The translations under genes were made by a program, and so were the position numbers. Below, in pieces: positions 1,072-20,133 of a stretch of DNA of 21,268 nucleotides. The stretch's first letter is position 1, and each line of letters opens with the position of its first letter. This DNA comes from Simkaniaceae bacterium (GTDB lineage Bacteria; Chlamydiota; Chlamydiia; Chlamydiales; Simkaniaceae). The DNA is taken from contig JBFWSA010000034.1 in the NCBI GenBank assembly GCA_050248615.1, forward strand, positions 1-21,268. Reading direction: 5' to 3'. Below the pieces are notes generated by a model that saw only the letters and a list, made by a program, of their open reading frames with translations, ran no database searches and was not told the DNA's origin.

Positions 1072-1162
1072 TATAGCTAAATTAATTTAAAATTGGGATG
1101 ATTTATTTCGACTTCTTAAAATCTCTCCTAAATCATCCCAATTTTAAATTAATTTAGCTATA
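1072..1162. repeat. 91-bp palindromic element with perfect 34-bp inverted arms (MITE-like; may also terminate both convergent transcripts)
   Basis: 1072-1105 TATAGCTAAATTAATTTAAAATTGGGATGATTTA is the exact reverse complement of 1129-1162. 23-nt loop. TA at both ends. Confidence 0.9.
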
Positions 1163-8311: not shown

Positions 8312-8476
8312 AACCTGCGTTTTGGGTTCTTCTTATTGAGTCTCAGAGTTTTTTCTCTTTCTTTTTGCTTGTTTTCACTTGAAAAGGACCCTTTGGCCCT
8401 TTCCTTCATGAAAACAAACAAAAATCTAATAAAAAAACTCTCAGATTCTCCATAACAAAAACTCAAAACCCAGGTT
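8312..8476. repeat. 165-bp imperfect rod-like palindrome (element D, AACCTG termini)
   Basis: ~80-nt arms pair along their whole length (AACCTGcGTTTTGgGTT / AActCAAAACcCAGGTT; AGAGTTTTTT / AAAAAACTCT; TTTTTGcTTGTTTTCA / TGAAAACAAaCAAAAA). 4-nt apex. Right end overlaps the porin stop codon. Confidence 0.85.
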
Positions 8477-9643: not shown

Positions 9644-9802
9644 GAACTTAACCGCAAAGTATACTCAAACAACTTCAAAAGTTGGATTTTTATGTGTTTT
9701 CTTGGAGATTTAGGAACTGCATGGATGATAAGACGGAAAAATGAAGGTTCTAAAGATTCTGAAAACACAAAAAGATTAGAAATAATTTATTAGGATAGCT
9801 TC
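9644..9802. repeat. Degenerate 159-bp copy of the GAACCTATCC palindromic element (element C)
   Basis: Left end GAACtTAaCCGCAAAGT is a 15/17 match to the element B terminus. Right end is GGATAGcTTC. Internal inverted pair TGTGTTTTC / GAAAACACA. Confidence 0.65.
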
Positions 9803-10118
9803 ATGAGATGAGATTTTCATTTTCACTTTCAATCTTTTCCAATCGCTCAATACGTTTTTCTAAATCTAAAATGCGATTCTCGATCGAAGGTTTTTCTCCA
9901 ATATTTTTTGATTTTTCCCCCAATAAAAGCTCATGCATTGTCACTTTGCCTAAAGTAAACTCTTCTATTTTTTTCGCAGTTTTTAATGAAGGCCGGGAAA
10001 TTCCTTTTAGAATTTTCCATAGATTAGTCGTGCTAATTTCAACGGCCTGAGCAAACGCCTTTTTTTTGAGTCCAGATTTTTTAAGATATTCTTCTAAAAG
10101 CATCAAACCAGGTTTCAT
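9801..10118 (-). CDS. Cro/XRE-family helix-turn-helix transcriptional regulator with C-terminal coiled coil
   Basis: L..YL...GL....FA..V.IS...L..I..G...PS...A..IE..T.G.VT..EL pattern, followed by RILDLEKRIERLEK. Confidence 0.88.
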   Translation of the reverse strand: MKPGLMLLEEYLKKSGLKKKAFAQAVEISTTNLWKILKGISRPSLKTAKKIEEFTLGKVTMHELLLGEKSKNIGEKPSIENRILDLEKRIERLEKIESENENLIS

Positions 10119-10121
10119 TTG

Positions 10122-10169
10122 TGAACCTATCTCGAATGAAAATAAATCCTTTAACTCGTGATAGGTTCA
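10122..10169. repeat. Short internally deleted copy of the GAACCTATC element (element E), hairpin over the HTH RBS
   Basis: TGAACCTATCtCGA (10122-10135) pairs with TCGtGATAGGTTCA (10156-10169), 20-nt loop. On the minus strand AAGGATTTATTT sits at the same offset as in element A. Confidence 0.8.
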
Positions 10170-10315: not shown

Positions 10316-10479
10316 GAACCTATCCAGTATTTAAGGATTTATTTGATTTCTTCGATTTTTGAACAGATTTTCCATTTTCATTTTGATCACATTGTCCATG
10401 AGACAAGAGGTCAAAATGAAAATGGAAAAGATGCCAAAAAGCGCGGAATAAAAAAATGTCTTAAATATTGGATAGGTTC
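10316..10479 (+). repeat. 164-bp rod-like palindromic element (element A)
   Basis: Terminal arms 10314-10335 and 10460-10481 are 21/22 complementary. Inner arms TTTTCCATTTTCATTTTGAtC / GgTCAAAATGAAAATGGAAAA are 20/21. Apex TTGTC-catga-GACAA. Confidence 0.9.
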
Positions 10480-10500
10480 ATAGGTCTCGAAAAGGCTGAA

Positions 10501-10530
10501 ATAAAAAAGGCGAGACTATAGTCTCGCCTT
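10501..10530 (-). terminator. Rho-independent terminator of the porin cluster
   Basis: Perfect palindrome AAGGCGAGACTATAGTCTCGCCTT (10507-10530) running into a U tract on the minus strand, 30 nt after the stop at 10561. Confidence 0.88.
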
Positions 10531-10560
10531 ATAGATAAAAGGTGTCCCAGCTAGAGTTGC

Positions 10561-11730
10561 TTAGAAATCCCACTGAAAATTGAGGGTCACACCATGCATA
10601 CTCACATCTTCAGAATACCTTTCATAAGTTGAAGCTGTAACAATGTTGGTTTCATCTATTTGTAGCATTTGGTTTTGTCTCCACCAATACTCAACTTCAA
10701 ACCCCAGCCCAATCCCAAGGTGCTGTTTATTGTTATTGATATAGGTATCATAGCGCAGACCCAACTGCATCTGTGCTGTGGGAGAGAACGCATGACGGTT
10801 TGCATCTAACTTAATTTTGTTATTGATAAAACCACTATATTTCTCTTCATGTTCAACATCAAAGTATCCGAAAAGGAGGGCTCCATTAAGGTTACCAAAA
10901 ATACTGAACCCATACCCTAAATACCACTTGGTATCAAATCCAACACGAGGACCAATCCCCCAGAAATCACATTCATCATCGATATGAACGGTATTTCCAC
11001 TGAGACCAACTACCGTAGGATTAACGGCAGCATCAGGGCTTCCACCCGTGTAGCGAATAATTTGCTCTTGATTCATCCAAGCAGCCTTCATCCCCCAGTG
11101 AGGGCGAAATGAGAGCTTACCGCTAATGTAGTAAGCCCGTCCCAGTTCAAGATCTACGGCATCATAGTTAAAGTCATACTGAGACTTTGCACTCGTACAA
11201 TAGAGGAACTGAGGTACCGGAGGAATCGCAGGATTCGTTGGATCACTGGTAATATTTGAGCTTCCTCGTAGAGGAATAATCGAGCTATTCACTCCCGAAC
11301 GGGTAGAATTGCTTCCATTGGTATCAAACCATGTATAGACCGCTCTGATATCCCAATTATCATGGACAAAATTATAACCAAGTCCTATACGGAGTCCCCA
11401 ATCCCAGTCGAAATCCATGTCTTTGGTTCGCCCTCTAATGGGAAGGGAAGCTGTTGGGTCCTGATCTGTATATGCAAACTCTGTCCCACCGACACGGGTT
11501 TGCCAATAAAGGATGTCGGCTAAAATAAATAAGCCTTCTCCATCAACTTCAGCGCGTGCTGCAGCTGTTTTTGCACCATATCTCCCTGTTGCCGTCTCTG
11601 TCCGGATGTGAGTCATTTTATTTTCTAACTCTGTCACCCTAGAGTCCATATCCATAGCAGCAAATGCCATGGATGAAACCATAAGGGAAGGTATGGCCAT
11701 TGAGATCTTTCTCAATATATTTGTTTTCAT
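10561..11730 (-). CDS. Lpg1974-family / MOMP-like outer membrane porin (paralog 2)
   Basis: GAGGT RBS, signal peptide ending AFA, all family motifs, ends WDF. Confidence 0.9.
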   Translation of the reverse strand: MKTNILRKISMAIPSLMVSSMAFAAMDMDSRVTELENKMTHIRTETATGRYGAKTAAARAEVDGEGLFILADILYWQTRVGGTEFAYTDQDPTASLPIRGRTKDMDFDWDWGLRIGLGYNFVHDNWDIRAVYTWFDTNGSNSTRSGVNSSIIPLRGSSNITSDPTNPAIPPVPQFLYCTSAKSQYDFNYDAVDLELGRAYYISGKLSFRPHWGMKAAWMNQEQIIRYTGGSPDAAVNPTVVGLSGNTVHIDDECDFWGIGPRVGFDTKWYLGYGFSIFGNLNGALLFGYFDVEHEEKYSGFINNKIKLDANRHAFSPTAQMQLGLRYDTYINNNKQHLGIGLGFEVEYWWRQNQMLQIDETNIVTASTYERYSEDVSMHGVTLNFQWDF

Positions 11731-11771
11731 TTTTTCTTACCTCATGGGTTTATTTGTTAACTTTTTTGACC

Positions 11772-12926
11772 TTAGAAATCCCACGTGAAGTCTAAAGTCA
11801 AGCCATGCATACTGATGTCCTCAGAATACCTCTCATATTGAAGCTGTTCTGAATCATCAATTTTTAGTGTTTGGTTTTGTCTCCACCAATACTCAACTTC
11901 AAAGCCTAAACCAATCCCGATGTGTTGCTTGTGATCAAACACATAGGTATCGTACCGAAGACCGAGTTGCATTTGAGCCGTTGGCGTGAATGCATGGCGA
12001 TTTGCATGAATTTTTATCTGATTGTTGATATATGCACTGTAGTGCTCTTCATGATCCACATTAAAATAGCCGAAAAGAAGGGCTCCCGCTAAATTCCCAA
12101 AAATACTAAATCCATACCCGAGAGACCATTGCGTATCGAAGCCCAGACGGGGTCCTACTCCCCAGAAATCGGATTCATCTTTCACATGAACGGTATTGCC
12201 TGATAAACCGACTTCAATGGGGGTTCCATCAAAATTGACTTGAGGAACTCCTCCTGTATAGCGAACAAGCTGCTCCAAATCTATCCAAGCTGTTTTCACA
12301 CCCCAATGAGGGCGGAAAGCAAGATCCCCACTAATAAAGTAGGCGCGCCCCATCTCCAAATCAACTGCATCATAGTTAAAGTCGAACTGAGATTTGGCAC
12401 TCGTGCAGTAGAGGAAAAGAGGGTTCGTATCATTCGGTCTACGTGTGATTGTGGAGCTTCCTTTTAATGGAATAATAGAGTTATTTGATCCCACGCGAGT
12501 GGAAGCGCTTCCATTGGACTCAAACCAGGTATATTGGGCTCTCACATCCCAGTTATCATGAGTAAAGTGACGCCCCAGACCGATACGGAGTCCCCAATCC
12601 CAATCGAAATCCATATCTTTGGTACGCCCTCTTAAGGGTAGAGTTGCTGTTGTACTTTGATCGGTATAAGCATATTCCGTGCCACCGACTCTAGGTTGCC
12701 AATAAAGGATATCAAATAGAATGAACCATCCTTGCCCATCCACCTGAACTTCAGCAGTCGCCGTTTGAGCAGAGTAAGTCCCCACAGCTGTTTCAGTACG
12801 TACCTGCCCCATTTTATTTTCCAGCGCTGTCAAACGATCTTCCGTTTCTAGGTGGGCAAAAGCTACAGATCCTATTCCTAATAAAGGAAGAGCTCTCAAA
12901 ACAACCTTTAGTGCACTATTTTTCAC
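11772..12926 (-). CDS. Lpg1974-family / MOMP-like outer membrane porin (paralog 3), GTG start
   Basis: GAGGT RBS 7 nt before GTG. Signal peptide ending AFA. Ends WDF. Confidence 0.9.
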   Translation of the reverse strand: MKNSALKVVLRALPLLGIGSVAFAHLETEDRLTALENKMGQVRTETAVGTYSAQTATAEVQVDGQGWFILFDILYWQPRVGGTEYAYTDQSTTATLPLRGRTKDMDFDWDWGLRIGLGRHFTHDNWDVRAQYTWFESNGSASTRVGSNNSIIPLKGSSTITRRPNDTNPLFLYCTSAKSQFDFNYDAVDLEMGRAYFISGDLAFRPHWGVKTAWIDLEQLVRYTGGVPQVNFDGTPIEVGLSGNTVHVKDESDFWGVGPRLGFDTQWSLGYGFSIFGNLAGALLFGYFNVDHEEHYSAYINNQIKIHANRHAFTPTAQMQLGLRYDTYVFDHKQHIGIGLGFEVEYWWRQNQTLKIDDSEQLQYERYSEDISMHGLTLDFTWDF

Positions 12927-12951
12927 CGCATTTACCTCTTCGGGTTACCCT

Positions 12952-14133
12952 TTAAAAATCCCATTTTAAATCAAACGTGACCCCATGCATGCTGAGATCT
13001 TCTGCATACCTTTCATACTGTGTGTTAAAGGAATCATCTACTTTTAGCATTTGATTCTGTCTCCACCAATACTGCGCTTCAAACCCGAGCCCTATGCCAA
13101 TATGTTGTTTGCCGTTATAGACATAGGTATCATAGTGGAGACCCAATTGCATTTGAGCTGTTGGAGAAAAAGCATGACGATTGGCATCCAGATCGATCGA
13201 GTTGTTAATATAAGCGCTATATCTTTCTTCATGCTCTACATCAAAGTATCCGTACAGAAGGGCTCCCGCTAGGTTTCCAAAAAAACTAAATCCATTCCCG
13301 AGATACCACTTGGTGTTAAAGCCAACGCGTGGACCCACTCCCCAGAAATGACAGGTATCTTCTATATGAACCGTATTTCCATTTAGCCCCACAATTTCAG
13401 GAACATTGGCCCCAGGAACTGTTCCAGGGCTTCCTCCCGTATAACGGACAATTTGCTCTAAGTCAAACCAGGCCGCTTTTACTCCATAGTGAGGACGGAA
13501 AGAGAGCTTTCCACTAATAAAGTAAGCCCGTCCTAACTCTAGATCGATCGCATCGTAGCTGAAATTAAATTGAGACTTTGCACTCAATGCAAATATGAAA
13601 AAGGGTGTACGCAGAGCGGGATCAAACGTGATCCTTGATGATCCTCTTAAGGGAATCACAGAGTCATTCTGGTTTTTGCGCGTGGAATCACTCCCATTGG
13701 TATCAAACCAAGTATACTCTCCATTTAGGATCCAGTTATCATGCTGAAAATTGTATCCCAGCCCAATACGGAGTCCCCAATCCCAATCGAAACTCATATC
13801 TTTGGTACGCCCACTGATCGGAAGGGCATTACCCACTCCAGCACCTGCATTGGAAGGTGTAGGACTCCCTATGTCTGTATAAGCATACTCTGTCCCCCCT
13901 ACTCTGGCTTGCCAATAGAGAATCCCAAAGGTAATAAACCATCCTTGTCCATCGACTTCTGGACGCGCTGTTGCCGTTTTGGGAGAATAGGTATCTTCAG
14001 CCGTGCGTACACGAAGTTGACTCATTTGATGTTCTAGCTCCGCCACTCGCGCTTCTTCATTCACATATCCTAATAGAGCTGTGGAAAGCCCCATCATCAC
14101 CAAAAATTTTAACGTACTGCTTTTCTTCAGCAT
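12952..14133 (-). CDS. Lpg1974-family / MOMP-like outer membrane porin (paralog 4)
   Basis: Likely start is the ATG at 14133, overlapping the upstream stop (TAATG), rather than 14145. Family motifs present. Ends WDF. Confidence 0.88.
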   Translation of the reverse strand: MLKKSSTLKFLVMMGLSTALLGYVNEEARVAELEHQMSQLRVRTAEDTYSPKTATARPEVDGQGWFITFGILYWQARVGGTEYAYTDIGSPTPSNAGAGVGNALPISGRTKDMSFDWDWGLRIGLGYNFQHDNWILNGEYTWFDTNGSDSTRKNQNDSVIPLRGSSRITFDPALRTPFFIFALSAKSQFNFSYDAIDLELGRAYFISGKLSFRPHYGVKAAWFDLEQIVRYTGGSPGTVPGANVPEIVGLNGNTVHIEDTCHFWGVGPRVGFNTKWYLGNGFSFFGNLAGALLYGYFDVEHEERYSAYINNSIDLDANRHAFSPTAQMQLGLHYDTYVYNGKQHIGIGLGFEAQYWWRQNQMLKVDDSFNTQYERYAEDLSMHGVTFDLKWDF

Positions 14134-15281
14134 TAGAAATCCCATTTAATATCTAGCGTTAACCCATACATATTGATGTCTTCAGAATACCTCTCATATT
14201 TGAAAACTTGGGCATCGTCAACCTTTAGCATTTGGTTTTGTCGCCACCAGTACTGCACTTCAAGCCCGAGCCCAATGCCAATATGGTGCTTATCCTGGTG
14301 GAAATAAGTATCATAGTGGAGACCCAGTTGGAGTTGCATGGTTGGAGAAAAAGCATTTCTATTCGCATTCAAAGTAATATGACTCCTTTCGTTTTGGCTC
14401 CACTTTTCTCTATGTTTGACATCAAAAAAGCCATAAAGAAGTGCAACCGCTCCATTACCAAAAATGCTCCAGCCACTTCCTAAATGCCACTGAGTATCCA
14501 TACCCACTCTTGGACCTGCTCCCGAAAAATCACATGAGTCTTTTACGTGCACTGTGGTTCCTTCTAGTCCTAATACCACTGGAAGACCATCATTGTCCAA
14601 TACTGAACCCGAGCCCGTATAACGAGTCGTTTGCTTTTGATCAAACCACGCAGCTTTCACTCCGTAGAAAGGGCGCATCGAAAACCACGCGCTCAAGAAA
14701 TAGGCACGTCCCAACTCTACATCGACCCCTTGATAATCGAAGTTGTACTGCGATTTTGCACTCGAGCAAAACAAAAAAATCGGAGGTGTGTTGGCATTGG
14801 GAGCAGCTCCTGGAACGGTAATCGTCGCCGTTCCGCGTAAGGGAACTAATGAACTACTCTGTCCTGCCCTTGAAGAATCACTCCCACTGGAATCAAACCA
14901 TGTGTATTGGGCTCTCACATCCCAGCTGTCAAAATCAAAATTATATCCTAAGCCAAAGCGCAATCCCCAGTCCCATTTAAAATCGATCGATTTTGTTCGC
15001 CCTTTAATTGGCAAACTCGCCGTAGGGTCTTGATCGGAATAAGCATATTCTGTCCCACCAACTTTCGCATGCCAATAGAGAATATCTGCTAAAATAAACC
15101 ACCCTTTACCCCCTACGTCGGGACGAGCCGTTGCTGTTCTAGCGCCATAGGTTCCCATTGAAGTCTCTGTCCGCACACACTGCATCTGGGTTTCCAGCTC
15201 TGTAACACGAGCGTCCATATCTTCAGCAGCAAATCCCATGCTGGTGACTAGAGTACTTATTGCTATCCAAATCTTCTTCAA
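14133..15281 (-). CDS. Lpg1974-family / MOMP-like outer membrane porin (paralog 5), TTG start
   Basis: GAGGT lies 6 nt before the TTG at 15281 (MKKIWIAISTLVTSMGFA). The track start at 15308 falls in the terminator tail. Ends WDF. Confidence 0.88.
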   Translation of the reverse strand: MKKIWIAISTLVTSMGFAAEDMDARVTELETQMQCVRTETSMGTYGARTATARPDVGGKGWFILADILYWHAKVGGTEYAYSDQDPTASLPIKGRTKSIDFKWDWGLRFGLGYNFDFDSWDVRAQYTWFDSSGSDSSRAGQSSSLVPLRGTATITVPGAAPNANTPPIFLFCSSAKSQYNFDYQGVDVELGRAYFLSAWFSMRPFYGVKAAWFDQKQTTRYTGSGSVLDNDGLPVVLGLEGTTVHVKDSCDFSGAGPRVGMDTQWHLGSGWSIFGNGAVALLYGFFDVKHREKWSQNERSHITLNANRNAFSPTMQLQLGLHYDTYFHQDKHHIGIGLGLEVQYWWRQNQMLKVDDAQVFKYERYSEDINMYGLTLDIKWDF

Positions 15282-15306
15282 CTTCCTACCTCGAGGATTT
15301 TTTTTC

Positions 15307-15347
15307 AAAAAAAAAGGGCGAGAGTCTACTCTAGTCCCCCGCCCTTT
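15307..15347 (-). terminator. Rho-independent terminator after porin paralog 6
   Basis: Minus strand AAAGGGCGGGG...TCTCGCCCTTT stem with G-U pairs, ending in a run of 9 U. Confidence 0.85.
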
Positions 15348-15374
15348 GTAGGTATCTGTTACGCAGTGTTTAGT

Positions 15375-16526
15375 CTAGAAGTCCCATTTGAAATCTAGAG
15401 TCACACCGTGCATGCTGACATCTTCAGAGTATCTCTCATACTTGAGAACCTGAGAGTCATCAATCTTCAGCATTTGGTTTTGTCTCCACCAATAATTGGC
15501 TTCAAAACCGAGGCCTATGCCTAAATGCTGTTTGTTATTATGGATGTACCTGTCATAACGTAAGCCTAACTGCATCTGCACCGTAGGTGAAAATGCGTGG
15601 CGACTTGCATGGATCTTAATTCTCTGATCCACTGCGTTACTCCAGCGCTCTTTATGGTCTACATCAAAGTAGCCAAAAAGCAGCGCCCCAGCCACGTTAC
15701 CAAAAATGCTAAATCCATTACCTAGGTGCCATTGAGAGTCTACACCCACACGTGGGCCCATTCCCCAAAAGTCACAATCATCTTTGACATGAACAGTCGA
15801 TCCTTCTAGACCTAGCGATACAACCTGACCATTCACAACCTGTGTTGGTCCACCCGTGTAACGCGCAATCTGTTCAAGATCGAGCCAAGCTGTCTTTAAA
15901 CCCCAAAAAGGGCGGAAAGAGAGCTTTCCACTGATAAAATAGGCACGTCCCAAGTCCAGATCTATCGACTGAAAGTCGAAGTCAAACTGTGACTTTCCAC
16001 TCGCACAATACAAAAATGGAGCATTGTTATTTGCTGCAATTTCTGTAATGCTTGAGGACCCCCGAAGAGGCACCACTGAGCTATTTTGCCCAGGACGCGT
16101 CGAATCACTACCATTCGAATCAAAGTATGTGTATTGGGCTTGCAGGTCCCAACCATCATGTTCAAAGTTGTATCCTAAACCAACCCTAAAGCCCCAATCC
16201 CACTCAAAGTCGATATCTTTTGATCGACCACTGATTGGAAGAGACGCAACTGGATCTTGGTCAGTATACGCATATTCTGTCCCACCAACTTTAGCGTGCC
16301 AATAAAGCACGTCAGCGGTGAAGAACCAGCCATACCCGTCCACTTCTGCACGAGCTGTAGCTGTATTCGCACCATAAGTCCCCATAGCGGTCTCGGTACG
16401 CACTTGCGACATTTGATTTTCAAGCTGCGTTACACGAGAGTCCATATCTATTGCAGCAAAAGCTGCTGAAGATGTCACAAGGGAGGCAATGGCTATTGAG
16501 AGTAATCTCAAATTGCTCACTTTCAT
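15375..16526 (-). CDS. Lpg1974-family / MOMP-like outer membrane porin (paralog 6, candidate major porin)
   Basis: GAGGTAAG RBS, signal peptide ending AFA, ends WDF. Has its own ~300-nt upstream region and its own terminator. Confidence 0.9.
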   Translation of the reverse strand: MKVSNLRLLSIAIASLVTSSAAFAAIDMDSRVTQLENQMSQVRTETAMGTYGANTATARAEVDGYGWFFTADVLYWHAKVGGTEYAYTDQDPVASLPISGRSKDIDFEWDWGFRVGLGYNFEHDGWDLQAQYTYFDSNGSDSTRPGQNSSVVPLRGSSSITEIAANNNAPFLYCASGKSQFDFDFQSIDLDLGRAYFISGKLSFRPFWGLKTAWLDLEQIARYTGGPTQVVNGQVVSLGLEGSTVHVKDDCDFWGMGPRVGVDSQWHLGNGFSIFGNVAGALLFGYFDVDHKERWSNAVDQRIKIHASRHAFSPTVQMQLGLRYDRYIHNNKQHLGIGLGFEANYWWRQNQMLKIDDSQVLKYERYSEDVSMHGVTLDFKWDF

Positions 16527-16822
16527 CTTCTTACCTCATAAGAATTATTTATGTTATTTCTAAACTTGCTTCAATTTTTTCTATATAGGATAGCAACTAA
16601 ATAAATGAAGCAATTTTTAATACTCAATTATGAACATTACTAATTGCGCTTCGTTATTATATTGACTCTCTTGCAGAGAGCCGCAAGTCTTACCCGGGGA
16701 AGTCGGCACCCTAGAGCATAGACCTCCTCCACCCCCATAAGTACTGAATACTTTATTTAATTGTACAGGGTTTTATTTACGAATAAGAAATTAAAATGAA
16801 AAAGAAAGAAAATAAATTAAAT

Positions 16823-16852
16823 AAAAAAAGACCCTGATTACAGGGTCTTTTT
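16823..16852. terminator. Intrinsic terminator after porin paralog 7, potentially bidirectional
   Basis: AAAAAGACCCTG-atta-CAGGGTCTTTTT with A and T tracts on the two sides. Confidence 0.88.
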
Positions 16853-16875
16853 GTAGGTCGAAAGATGTCAGGGAT

Positions 16876-18036
16876 TTAGAAATCCCATTTTACATCCACT
16901 GTAATGCCATAAAATGCTAAGTCTTCAGAATAACGATCATACTTAACCTCTGAAGAATCATTTATTTTAAGCATTTGATTCTGTCTCCACCAGTATTGAC
17001 CTTCAAAGCCAATACCAATTCCGAGATGGTTTTTGTGCTCATACAGGTAAGTATCATAGCGCAAACCTAACTGGAACTGAAGCGTTGGAGAAAAAGCATG
17101 ACGATTCGCATGCAAATGGATCCGTGAGGCTTCAATCGCACTATATTTTTCTTTGTGATCTACATCAAAGTATCCCCAAAGAAGAGCTCCTGAAACATTT
17201 CCAAAGATGCTAAATCCTTGACCCATATACCATCTAGAATCGACACCCGTTCTAGGACCAATACCCCAGAAATCACTGGTTTCTTTTACATGGACTGTGT
17301 TTCCAGCAATACCCAAAGGACTTACACCTTGTTGATTAGGCAACTGCCCACCCCCTGTGTAACGCGTCTTTTGTTCCAGATCAATCCATGCATTCTTAAG
17401 ACCCCAGAAAGGGCGGAAAGAAAGGGTACTTGTAATGTAATAATCCCGTCCAAGTTCTAAGTCAATCGCCTGATAGTCTACATCAAACAGAGACTTTGCA
17501 CTTGTACAGAAAAGAAAAGGTGTTTCTACCTGATTGGTTTGAGGCAAATCCGTTAAAAATGCAGATCCACGGAGAGGAATCACACTACTGCTGAGCCCTG
17601 CGCGAGTAGATGAGCTGCCATCGCCATCCCACCAAGTATATTGACCACGCATATCCCAGCCATCATGCTCGAAGTTATAGCCTAAACCGACTCGAATACC
17701 CCAGTCCCAATCAAATTCCATCTGCTTTGTATTTCCTTTAACGGGAAGTCGAGCAATAGGATCTTGGTCTGTATAGGCAAACTCTGTTCCGCCGATCTTT
17801 GTACGCCAAAATAATAAATCAAAGGTTATGAACCAACCTTTACCGTCTACTTCGGGGCGAGCATGAGCTGTGTTCGCGCCAAAAGTACCCATAGCATTCT
17901 CAGTCCCCACTTGTTTCATCTGATTTTCAAGTTCCGCGATTCGGACCTCTCGATCAGCTGCAGCATAACCCAGGGAAGAGAACACAAATAAGGAAACGAT
18001 GCCGGCCGCAATCTTCCTTAAACGTCTCACTTTCAT
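16876..18036 (-). CDS. Lpg1974-family / MOMP-like outer membrane porin (paralog 7)
   Basis: GAGGT RBS, signal peptide ending GYA, family motifs, ends WDF. Confidence 0.9.
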   Translation of the reverse strand: MKVRRLRKIAAGIVSLFVFSSLGYAAADREVRIAELENQMKQVGTENAMGTFGANTAHARPEVDGKGWFITFDLLFWRTKIGGTEFAYTDQDPIARLPVKGNTKQMEFDWDWGIRVGLGYNFEHDGWDMRGQYTWWDGDGSSSTRAGLSSSVIPLRGSAFLTDLPQTNQVETPFLFCTSAKSLFDVDYQAIDLELGRDYYITSTLSFRPFWGLKNAWIDLEQKTRYTGGGQLPNQQGVSPLGIAGNTVHVKETSDFWGIGPRTGVDSRWYMGQGFSIFGNVSGALLWGYFDVDHKEKYSAIEASRIHLHANRHAFSPTLQFQLGLRYDTYLYEHKNHLGIGIGFEGQYWWRQNQMLKINDSSEVKYDRYSEDLAFYGITVDVKWDF

Positions 18037-18205
18037 TTTTTTACCTCTTGAGGGGGTTAAATATAATACGTCTTAGTTCCCTGATATAAAGTATGATGCT
18101 GAAATAATAAAGAGATTTTTGAAATATTATCTTCTAAGTCTTTAATATCAATGTAATAAAAAACAAAAAATCTGAAAAATTATTAAAAAGAAATGAATTA
18201 GATAT

Positions 18206-18227
18206 GCTGAAATGCAGGCATTTCAGC
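18206..18227 (-). terminator. Hairpin immediately after the rpoD stop (possible terminator or stability stem)
   Basis: GCTGAAATGC-ag-GCATTTCAGC perfect inverted repeat. U tract is weak. Confidence 0.55.
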
Positions 18228-18228
18228 T

Positions 18229-19893
18229 CTATTCTACTTCAATAATATCGAGGAAAGCCTGAAGCTGTTTAGAACGTGTAGGATGACGCATTTTTCTCAA
18301 AGCTTTAGCTTCAATTTGCCGCACACGCTCACGGGTCACTTTAAAACGAACACCGACCTCTTCCAGCGTCTTAGGTTTCCCATCTAGGAGCCCAAACCTT
18401 TCTATAAGGACAGTACGCTCGCGATCGGTTAAGGTCGAAAGGACCTCATTCATCTTATCTTTTAATATCGAGTACCCTGTTGCTTCATCGGGAGATTCGA
18501 TTGTCGTGTCTTCTAAAAAGTCCCCAAACTGACTCTCCCCACTATCGCCCACTTCGGCCTGAAGAGAGATTGGATGTTGAGCTATCTTATAGATTTCACG
18601 AATGCGCTCTGGAGTGAGCCCTAACTCAATCGCTAATTCTTCAGGGGTGGGTTCCCGCCCTGTCTCCATCATCAACTTCTTCGCTCCACGCAAGACCTTA
18701 TTAATGGTCTCAATCATATGGACAGGGATACGAATGGTACGTGCTTGATCTGCAATTGCTCGCGTTACAGCCTGACGAATCCACCACGTTGCATAGGTAG
18801 AAAACTTATAACCACGTCGGTATTCGAATTTCTCGACAGCCTTCATGAGTCCCATGTTCCCCTCTTGAATCAGATCCAAGAAAGAAAGGCCTCGGTTGGT
18901 ATATTTTTTCGCAATCGAAATGACGAGCCTTAAGTTAGACTCAACCATTTCACGCTTCGCTTCTTGACTCTTATCCATCCACCGTTGAAGCATCCGGACA
19001 TCTTTTTTAAACTTATCTAGCGTCCGACCCGCTGCCAATTCCCGCTTCGCCAATTTACGCTCCGCAGACATCAACTTGGCTTTCGCAAAGCGGTTCTTCT
19101 CAGCACGTGGCACAAGTTCCTGAATTTCTTTCTCTAAGCTTAAAAAACGATCGTAAGCAGAAAGGATGACTTCTCCGAAATCATCCGTCACATTATGACG
19201 GAAGTACATCCTTCTTAAAAAAGCTTGCGTGCGGACATTACATTTTTCGATATCTTCGGATAGCTTAACCTTTTCCACCTTATTTAAAGATCGATCCAAG
19301 GATTTAAGCAAAAGGTCTTCCAGGATATCATCCTCTTTAATCAGTAAATCCCGGAGTTTGGGGAGCATTTTGAGGAAATGGTTTTTATCATCGATTTCCT
19401 TTTCCGCAATACTCTTATCAAAGCGCTCTTTCCCAGAAATCAAATAGTTAGCAATGGAAATCGCTTCACGTGTGGAATAACGAAAACGCATAATAATGCG
19501 TTCGATCTGCATCTGTGCTTTTTCAATCCGTTTCGATATTTCTACCTCTTCCTCTCTTGAAAGAAGAGGGACCGACCCCATCTCTTTAAGGTACATCCGC
19601 ACAGGATCGTCACTACTTCCCTCCATACGTTTGGGAAGAGATTCCATCTCCTTCGCTTCTTTTTTCCTTTCTTTTTGGCGCTCGACTTCAGACTGATTTA
19701 AAATCTGAATGTCCATCCCACTTAGAAAGATAAGAACTTGGTCGATCTGCTCAGCAGAGTCAAAGGTCATGGGGAGAATTTCATTGATCTCCTCATAGGT
19801 AATATACCCCTGCTCCTTTGCAATCGCAACGAGCTCTTCGATTTTCTGTTGATGTTGTGGATCGAAACCCTGACTAAATCCGGATTTGCTCAT
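18229..19893 (-). CDS. rpoD: Primary RNA polymerase sigma factor (sigma66/RpoD)
   Basis: Region 1.1 ([13 protein letters not shown]), region 1.2 ([12 protein letters not shown]), region 2 ([12 protein letters not shown]...[12 protein letters not shown]) and region 4 (TLEEVG...[10 protein letters not shown]). AGGAG RBS. Confidence 0.98.
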
Positions 19894-19959
19894 GGTCTCC
19901 TAAGAATCACAAAGAAATCTCTATATCAGCTTTTAGCAATAAATGCCTATACCTATAAT

Positions 19960-19989
19960 ATTGTACTATGAACCTATCCGCAAAGTCAA
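19960..19989 (-). promoter_or_regulatory. Putative sigma66 promoter of rpoD: TTGACT-N18-TACAAT
   Basis: -35 at 19989-19984 and -10 at 19965-19960. Each hexamer is 5/6 to the sigma70 consensus. About 66 nt upstream of the ATG. Confidence 0.65.
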
Positions 19990-20133
19990 ATACGCTTTCT
20001 TTTTGCTCTTTTTTGACTTTTTTGATGTTCTTTTTTCGCCCTTGTCTCCTGGACAATGTGCTCAAATAAAAACATCAAAAATTGTCTAAAAAACTTCCAA
20101 AAATTAAACTTACTCTACTTTGCGGATAGGTTC
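19970..20133 (-). repeat. 164-bp rod-like palindromic element (element B), inverted homolog of element A
   Basis: Perfect 17-bp terminal inverted repeats GAACCTATCCGCAAAGT, flanked by TAT on both sides. 20041-20066 is the reverse complement of 10382-10407 at 24/26 positions. Confidence 0.9.

Follow-up and report, generated by a model that had tools for sequence, protein, structure and literature searches.

Rod-shaped 164-nt elements of a Simkaniaceae genome as probable type II MITEs with IS5-family terminal repeats

The window (the whole stretch of Simkaniaceae DNA analyzed here, 21,268 nt) carries two rod-shaped elements, copies A and B, each exactly 164 nt long from GAACC to GGTTC and placed in opposite orientation, together with the other features given below.

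10316..10479, + strand: copy A, a probable full-length GAACC-ended MITE from a near-identical subfamily of 8 copies in the genome
10382..10407, + strand: apex of A, a 5-bp stem with a 5-nt loop, flanked by an asymmetric loop and common to the TATAG-ended family
19970..20133, − strand: copy B, a probable full-length MITE from a 2-copy subfamily
20041..20066, − strand: apex of B
19893, − strand: start of a primary-sigma-factor-like gene on one side of copy B (label from the sequence), with a CoiA-nuclease-like gene on the other side
9644..9802, + strand: 159-nt mosaic with AT on either side, absent in G001
10123..10168, no strand assigned: collapsed 46-nt copy (two ends, interior lost) just upstream of an HTH gene, absent in G001
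1072..1162, no strand assigned: collapsed copy of the TATAG-ended family, with its apex deleted
8313..8475, − strand: 163-nt rod of the ACCTG end class with a 5-bp direct repeat

The first-pass annotation had described two inverted 164-nt copies with shared ends and self-pairing stems, and this description holds in its coordinates, stem strings, apex and folds. A and B contain all eight of the stem strings as well as the apical 26-mer, with the apex starting at offset 67 (A) or 68 (B); the terminal 20 bases are complementary at 19/20 positions in A and 18/20 in B, and the two copies are 66% identical. The folding energies of −74.6 kcal/mol for A on its better-folding + strand (z −11.3) and −67.9 kcal/mol for B on the − strand (z −11.25) were each equaled by 0/200 shuffles. 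Copy A has an AT/AT target duplication, one AT per side, and copy B, flanked by AT and TA, has no clean 2-bp duplication. The mosaic at 9644..9802 consists of a decayed GAAC-type left end, a 31-nt TATAC-family end piece (9660-9690) and the right part of another GAACC subfamily. Rod copies adjoin promoters and alter the intergenic regions of these reduced genomes.

The search of the genome for further copies revealed a family far larger than two, with 58 profile hits and 39 near-full-length rods, and the end 10-mer has 78 occurrences over 2.04 Mb, where simple arithmetic from 43% GC predicts ~3-4. A 2-bp target duplication is present in 30/39 near-full-length rods (AT 18, TT 5, AA 4, CT 2, TA 1), a count that none of 5000 flank shuffles reached (mean 13.6, maximum 22), and where the left flank is not AT the right flank still matches it in 12/18 cases. 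Target duplications are also present at 77/119 GTDB loci. One rod copy splits a transposase pseudogene, with positions 15-61 and 60-153 of an IS30 model at its two sides.

Empty orthologous sites, which the first-pass annotation had suggested looking for, were found for both window copies. The site of A is empty in G001 and G027 and that of B in G001, G027 and G020, and both are empty in one same-genus genome; divergence of the orthologous flanks is too great for a base-exact reading of these sites. Three strain-level DNA runs yielded no allele in which the site of A or of B is empty, and no contig joint removes either copy. One strain contig lacks 122 nt of the interior of B and likely represents a collapsed copy at another place.

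The same genome contains a candidate source of the ends, as had been proposed for IS5-family termini and for a transposase gene bounded by them. It is a 777-bp DDE_Tnp_1 remnant (G000:C55:3968-4744) with an 18-bp repeat beginning GAACCTATCC, whose reading frame ends within the right repeat and which is without a target duplication; no intact cognate transposase was found among the 69 contigs of this assembly, which is 96% complete. Eight related elements in relatives measure 836-919 bp, are laid out in two frames and have ends reading GA(A/G)(C/T)CTATCC, and a full-length two-ORF copy with an annotated transposase is present in a cultured strain (NC_015710.1). Among the nine long elements a 2-bp duplication is seen in 5/9 and the repeats are 16-18 bp. 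Their transposases carry DUF4096 and DDE_Tnp_1 domains, and one element reaches 128.5 bits against the IS5 transposase model NF033580 (cut-off 110), which identifies the partner, as judged from its sequence, as an IS5-family DDE insertion sequence. Its size, repeat length, duplication and two-ORF layout suggest that it belongs to the IS427 group, whose Paracoccus elements (e.g., IS1248 and ISPaes1) are described in the available text of PMC3281130 as two-ORF elements of 832-865 bp whose repeats are 14-21 bp and whose duplications are mostly 2 bp; four partner copies exceed these lengths by 20-55 bp. The rod differs from this group in having no transposase and in the varying sequence of its duplication.

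Matches between rods and these insertion sequences are confined to the ends (16-22 nt, up to 34), plus a single weak match of 54 nt at the left end (E 5e-4), and among the matches listed nothing better than the end matches relates the rod interior to the IS bodies. A simple internal deletion of the IS is rejected on the same ground, as the interiors are without a match among those listed. The sharing of ends and not of interior marks the rod as a probable type II MITE. The co-occurrence of the two partners is imperfect, with an IS match in 6/12 rod genomes and 9/49 others (p=0.055, with kin treated as independent though they are not); G022 has 15 IS hits and no rod by exact pattern.

The rods are thus, very probably, gene-less type II MITEs of environmental chlamydiae with IS5-family terminal repeats that are likely moved in trans by an IS transposase. 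Counting against this are the failure to find an intact transposase, the remnant's lack of a duplication, the imperfect match between rod and IS genomes, the absence of empty alleles in the strain-level runs and the diverged orthologous flanks. The transposase would recognize the ends that rod and IS share, and movement of this kind by an IS5-type enzyme would explain the 2-bp target duplications; its source may be IS copies that have now decayed or been lost. Of the identities offered at first, that of a non-autonomous mobile hairpin agrees with the duplications, the cognate transposase element, the empty sites and the many copies.

The divergent stems were expected to pair with themselves, and they do so through compensatory change: pairs changed on both sides number 31/59 and 27/64 in two groups, which 0/500 shuffles equaled. 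The groups were counted apart because a single MAFFT alignment of 34 sequences put the inner arms out of register, leaving only 29 outer pairs, and both pair structures were derived from the counted alignments, which biases the result in their favor over the slid controls. Within subfamilies there are 28/98 double changes against 4.5 expected, 26 of them Watson-Crick. Arm mismatches between lineages are one-stranded, with G-A over T-C at 74:7 and G-T over A-C at 54:11. At the level of individual copies G-T:A-C is 25:17, which differs from 54:11 between lineages (p=0.012, for sequences that are related), and copy-level changes of the TATAC family point in the opposite direction (39:65). Other end classes give 94:7 for G-A and 70:31 for G-T, which we discount as evidence because the strands there were picked by folding energy. 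The proposal that length and structure are conserved while stem sequence is free stands for length and structure; the stems are not wholly free, since T/A tracts and G-A mismatches are conserved in them. DNA bending by phased A-tracts was set aside: such tracts do recur every 10-13 nt, but by simple arithmetic those of the two arms lie about half a turn out of phase.

If a strand of the rod folds, be it DNA or RNA, one arm could be copied onto the other, which is likely why the arms stay matched; lineages that fold in this way would likely amplify better, which would account for the one-strand G-A and G-T asymmetry and the retained length of ~164 nt.

The apical 26-mer had been taken as a fixed handle, which is true of A and B and fails across the family, where the apical stem TTGTC/GACAA of this genome's group is replaced by TACTT/AAGTA and others in other chlamydial copies. 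As judged from profile matches, the core of the GAACC rod also sits within the TA-flanked TATAG family, whose ends are unrelated. A further 18 end classes are present in the genome, almost all 157-171 nt long and with duplications of 2-10 bp (2, 3, 4, 5, 6-9 and 10 bp across classes), and core homology was seen for one of them, the TATAG family. Both TATAC and TATAG families are TA-flanked, and we found no cognate IS630 element with either end, apart from a single remnant whose ends cannot be seen. Scores of the whole-rod model on other classes reflect any long hairpin.

What the interior of such a MITE does admits different accounts. It is quite possible that it is passive, with arm copying, shared ancestry and a limit on size accounting for covariation and asymmetry while structure is under no selection; double changes do appear inside young subfamilies, the apex of the copy at C4:33618 is flipped relative to its outer arms, and the G-A positions are in part inherited from one ancestor. 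However, copying between arms would be expected to remove mismatches, yet G-T outnumbers A-C in 16/18 lineages (the reverse in none) and G-A outnumbers T-C in 17/18, and copy-level changes are near neutral. It is possible, if somewhat less so, that the interior is a functional single-strand chassis of ~165 nt (RNA or ssDNA), bound by the transposase or a host protein, that changes its transposase by swapping ends. The GAACC core model has a one-strand match to the TATAG family (31.7 bits, E 3e-5), the TATAG-family apex accounts for 13/14 inspected genome hits outside full GAACC copies and has a profile score of 7.7 against −21.2 ± 5.7 for shuffles, and the window's three-part mosaic and the apical stems swapped between chlamydial groups point the same way. 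So do the 99/193 de novo rods of 160-169 nt across end classes with different repeat lengths, although this size peak partly reflects the finder and MITEs in general. Against a chassis, 17 of the 18 other end classes are without demonstrated core homology (best E 0.07; profile scores no higher than about the 95th percentile of shuffles), near-perfect palindromes exist among relatives (L148, L154), and collapsed copies of 37-67 nt carry duplications. A wider chlamydial version is doubtful: the folding strand, with its G-A loops and periodic A/U tracts, would be needed for jumping, the element would parasitize IS5-, IS630-, IS982- and other transposases by end swapping, and arm copying would regenerate the second end. 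If this version were true, the core of such a non-autonomous element would define it in place of derivation from a single IS, and transposition by DDE enzymes would by implication include a step with structured RNA or ssDNA.

It is improbable that the host has domesticated the rods as a multicopy structured RNA or as a signal for mRNA processing. The strong covariation and one-strand folding would suit it, and MITE transcripts affect mRNA decay in other bacteria, according to parts of PMC3184786 and PMC10969869; set against this, even members of the genus do not share the insertion sites, and of the 21 cases that lie up to 200 nt downstream from the end of a gene, 15 have an antisense folding strand. 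The Rfam query that had been suggested returned no match at gathering threshold, and for the window and the rods of 20 related loci gave sub-threshold hits only, mostly miRNA hairpins. Gene orientation, site conservation and Rfam thus give no sign of a host RNA role; RNA contigs cover the rods poorly and are uninformative for repeats. The Flavo-1 motif (RF01705), multicopy, structured and found in both orientations (partial text of PMC9723704), was rejected with no genome match at E ≤ 1. A coding role was likewise rejected, as each frame is closed in at least one of the 18 lineages; 0/39 copies lie wholly inside a called ORF of at least 100 aa. Very improbable is a REPIN-like element moved by an HUH (RAYT) nuclease, the other option raised at first: a hairpin spanning the whole length and a single-strand bias would fit, but the variable 2-bp duplications and the ends identical to those of DDE insertion sequences speak against it. 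REPINs are not known to have DDE-type ends or such target duplication, and they have a RAYT partner. Leading and lagging strands also show no bias, at 18:18 for the GAACC family (3 unclear; 17:11 under a second orientation rule) and 63:79 for all families (p=0.21); a post hoc subset with p=0.035 was given no weight.

The reading as type II MITEs places the rods beside Nezha (with ISNpu3), mISOt1 of Orientia (IS5 family) and MITECca01 of Cardinium (IS982), type II MITEs paired with insertion sequences by their ends. These are short, gene-less and intergenic, with target duplications, IS-shared ends and a stable predicted hairpin (from portions of PMC3184786, PMC2575882, PMC9769881 and PMC10969869), all of which the GAACC rod resembles; going by the available parts of their descriptions, it is set apart by covarying arms over the whole length, the one-strand G-A/G-T bias and the core shared with a family of unrelated ends. 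ERIC, Correia and Rickettsia palindromic elements are, like the rod, palindromic multicopy repeats (127-157 nt), and ERIC is TA-flanked as are the TATAC and TATAG families here, whereas GAACC rods have GAACC ends and a variable duplication, and the Rickettsia elements fuse in frame whereas the rod has no frame conserved across lineages. The bcr1 element of the Bacillus cereus group (about 155 bp, mobile, with compensatory base changes, in the text available of PMC3184786) is a cruciform with 5-bp repeats, in contrast to the unbranched rod with its 2-bp duplication and identified IS partner.

Apart from the core shared with a family of unrelated ends, the rods are an ordinary kind of selfish DNA. 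In the literature searched we found no MITE described for Chlamydiota, nor these shared-core families. The GAACC family offers a testable handle on the similar-size, long-hairpin form of bacterial MITEs, with a full-length partner IS in a cultured strain, dozens of compensatory variants and a core common to two end classes.

Copies A (10316-10479, forward strand) and B (19970-20133, reverse strand) are rods, or hairpin elements, of 164 nt in opposite orientation, as the first-pass annotation had described, and every stem it quoted, together with the apical 26-mer, was found in them. The two copies are 66% identical and each folds far better than shuffled sequence (z about −11). The window makes up contig C34 of a 2.04 Mb genome (G000, 96% complete), and its cluster of Legionella_OMP paralogues, together with the names of other genomes carrying the element, indicates an environmental chlamydia. 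In G000 a profile built from 28 copies gives 58 matches, which bears out the suggestion that the pair belongs to a family. Near-full-length copies with GAACC ends account for 39 of these matches and, clustered at 88% identity, form 14 groups (10, 8, 5, 4, 2 and 2 copies, plus eight singles), and with ORFs crudely called none of the 39 lies wholly within one of at least 100 aa. Collapsed copies of 37-67 nt retain both ends and the duplication.

Window genes near the rods, and collapsed copies in the genome
8475-9551 and 10561-18036, reverse strand: seven tandem major-outer-membrane-protein-like paralogues, 60-80% alike in DNA, with a Legionella_OMP match in both scanned
9801-10118, reverse strand: Cro/HTH_3 gene, kept in three other genomes (G001, G020, G027)
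G000:C4:34479-34515: collapsed copy
G000:C4:49036-49072: collapsed copy
G000:C58:5417-5462: collapsed copy
G000:C1:9987-10053: collapsed copy

At the end of the outer-membrane-protein cluster an intrinsic-terminator-like hairpin (10507-10530, reverse strand) lies 27 nt before copy A, so that read-through into A is probably limited. A mosaic rod adjoins the stop of the Cro/HTH_3 gene, and shortly before the gene's start lies a 46-nt copy. On the reverse strand at 19960-19989, a TTGACT hexamer from the end of copy B precedes, by 18 nt, a flanking TACAAT; situated upstream of a primary-sigma-factor-like gene, these hexamers might tentatively be considered a candidate hybrid promoter, with 2 sites of this type found against 0.5 ± 0.8 in shuffles and the B site empty in relatives.

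A 2-bp target duplication accompanies 30 of the 39 copies (AT 18, TT 5, AA 4, CT 2, TA 1), while random flank pairings average 13.6 and peak at 22, with 0 of 5000 shuffles reaching the observed value; where the left flank is not AT, the duplication still matches in 12 of 18. For B, empty orthologous sites were found in G027, G020 and the same-genus genome G001, and the A site is empty in G001 and G027, as are in G001 the sites of the 46-nt copy and the mosaic, with orthologous flanks too diverged for exact junctions. In three strain-level DNA runs no allele lacking A or B turned up. One GAACC copy interrupts an IS30 pseudogene (model positions 15-61 before the copy, 60-153 after); the IS30 pseudogene at G000:C22:13228-14736 has been hit by an IS630 remnant as well as two GAACC rods. 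Of the 61 genomes searched, 12 contain the exact end-to-end pattern, G000 counted among them, and a GTDB search gave at least 119 loci, mostly Chlamydiota (among 119, 77 with 2-bp and 15 with 3-bp duplications). Massilia loci among the matches listed (L056, L062, L161 and others) have the same 10-bp ends on GC-rich rods of 156-171 nt with 3-bp TTA/TAA-type repeats; the ends are common to both, and the interior looks different. Genome G006 holds 26 copies, one young subfamily having expanded.

A transposase gene bounded by the same ends, which the first-pass annotation had proposed looking for, is present as a broken IS5-family element of 777 bp (G000:C55:3968-4744), whose 18-bp terminal repeat opens with the same 10-mer as the rods. 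Relatives of its C-terminal ORF occur in 15 of 61 genomes, and eight long elements recovered at those loci (836-919 bp, ends GA(A/G)(C/T)CTATCC) carry DUF4096 and DDE_Tnp_1 domains, score best on NF033580 and, counted with the remnant, show a 2-bp duplication in 5 of 9; NC_015710.1 holds a full-length copy with two ORFs. These features are consistent with the IS427 group as tabulated for Paracoccus (PMC3281130). Among the matches listed, rods and long elements agree over 16-34 terminal bases and not in the interior, and since the match is limited to the ends the rods are type II MITEs as PMC10969869 uses the term.

We regard it as highly probable that the GAACC rods are MITEs. The G000 assembly yielded no intact partner element, which counts against this reading, and co-occurrence is imperfect, with an IS match in 6 of 12 rod genomes vs. 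9 of 49 others (p = 0.055); G022 has 15 IS matches, yet no rod was found there by the exact pattern. From the common ends and the duplications, an IS427-type transposase acting in trans would most likely bind both rod ends and move the rod, the 2-bp duplication being made at an AT-rich target site during movement. Folding of one strand would likely let the arms copy each other, and selection for jumping probably acts on the conserved size and on the asymmetric core. If the rods are MITEs, a passive core is less likely than not and a functional core only slightly less likely than a passive one, with the remaining probability assigned to neither.

Covariation, counted in two nearly gap-free alignment groups (12 and 18 sequences), was borne out: both sides change in 31 of 59 and 27 of 64 pairs, and paired cells reach 93.8% and 95.7% vs. 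80.9% and 85.6% after shuffling (in each group 0 of 500 shuffles did as well). The apex proved not to be fixed, for its stem is near-invariant within a group and differs between groups (TTGTC/GACAA vs. TACTT/AAGTA), and is thus a structural feature rather than a fixed sequence. Arm mismatches in 18 lineage representatives are asymmetric (G-A 74 : T-C 7; G-T 54 : A-C 11; A-A 25 : T-T 9), with strands oriented by profile; 105 of 130 outside elements were excluded from this count, either because the interior scored low or because the orientation was ambiguous. One and the same strand is the better folder in 34 of 39 copies when treated as RNA and in 37 of 39 when treated as DNA, so that RNA and single-stranded DNA cannot be told apart on these data.

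Paired-site substitutions in four subfamilies (24 copies) include 28 double changes of 98 vs. 4.5 expected, a count inflated by sub-lineages in common, and 26 of the 28 are Watson-Crick. Together with a copy carrying a flipped apex, these double changes suggest arm-to-arm copying. In the G006 copy C252:2785 the right arm holds left-arm sequence, as such copying predicts. Single changes come close to neutrality (G-T 25 : A-C 17, vs. 54:11 between lineages, p = 0.012), from which we infer that the filter on asymmetry acts between lineages, on those that amplify; at copy level the TATAC-ended family runs contrary (G-T 39 : A-C 65). The GAACC family has no replication-strand bias (18:18) and no sense-strand preference relative to nearby genes (of the copies downstream of gene ends, 6 are sense and 15 antisense).

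Rods extend beyond GAACC ends. A de novo search gave 193, of which 99 measure 160-169 nt, and the first ten contigs hold 76 vs. 0 in block-shuffled controls. Across the 18 further end classes scored (one more pattern being redundant), direct repeats track the class (TA, TTA-type 3 bp, CTAG, 5 bp, 6-9 bp), and one class has a 10-bp repeat in two of its four copies. IS remnants within G000 match two of the classes; GATAGTGTCG is the end of an IS5-type remnant (C22) and ACGCGAATT that of an IS982 element (C11). TA flanks point to IS630-type enzymes, and a search of G000 for a cognate IS630 element found none. In G000 the TATAC-ended family numbers 43 copies that have both ends; they are mostly 163-164 nt long, TA-flanked and ERIC-like in look. 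At G000:C19:8050-8378, C28:23452-23650 and C15:7348-7546 rods sit inside, or are joined to, rods belonging to another end class, and the 159-nt mosaic of the window (9644-9802) combines parts of two classes. The GAACC-core model matches the TA-flanked TATAG family on one strand (E 3e-5), and the apex of that family appears in 13 of 14 inspected genome matches outside full GAACC copies; scored against the GAACC core, the other 17 classes gave no demonstrable core homology by sequence.

The rods match no Rfam family, as the proposed query established. The literature searched, outside subscription journals and ISfinder, yielded no title dealing with MITEs of chlamydiae or with cores common to end classes. 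The sources compared were PMC2575882, PMC9723704, PMC3184786, PMC9769881, PMC10969869, PMC3281130, PMC5896051 and PMC2864571; "Chlamyd" is absent from the main text of two reviews and of bioRxiv 10.1101/2024.01.18.576219, whose supplementary census covers 1.4 million MITEs and may include these sequences. The GAACC rods form a real and widespread family of MITEs, apparently without prior description, whose IS5-type partner has been identified and whose unexplained one-strand core is common to at least two end classes.
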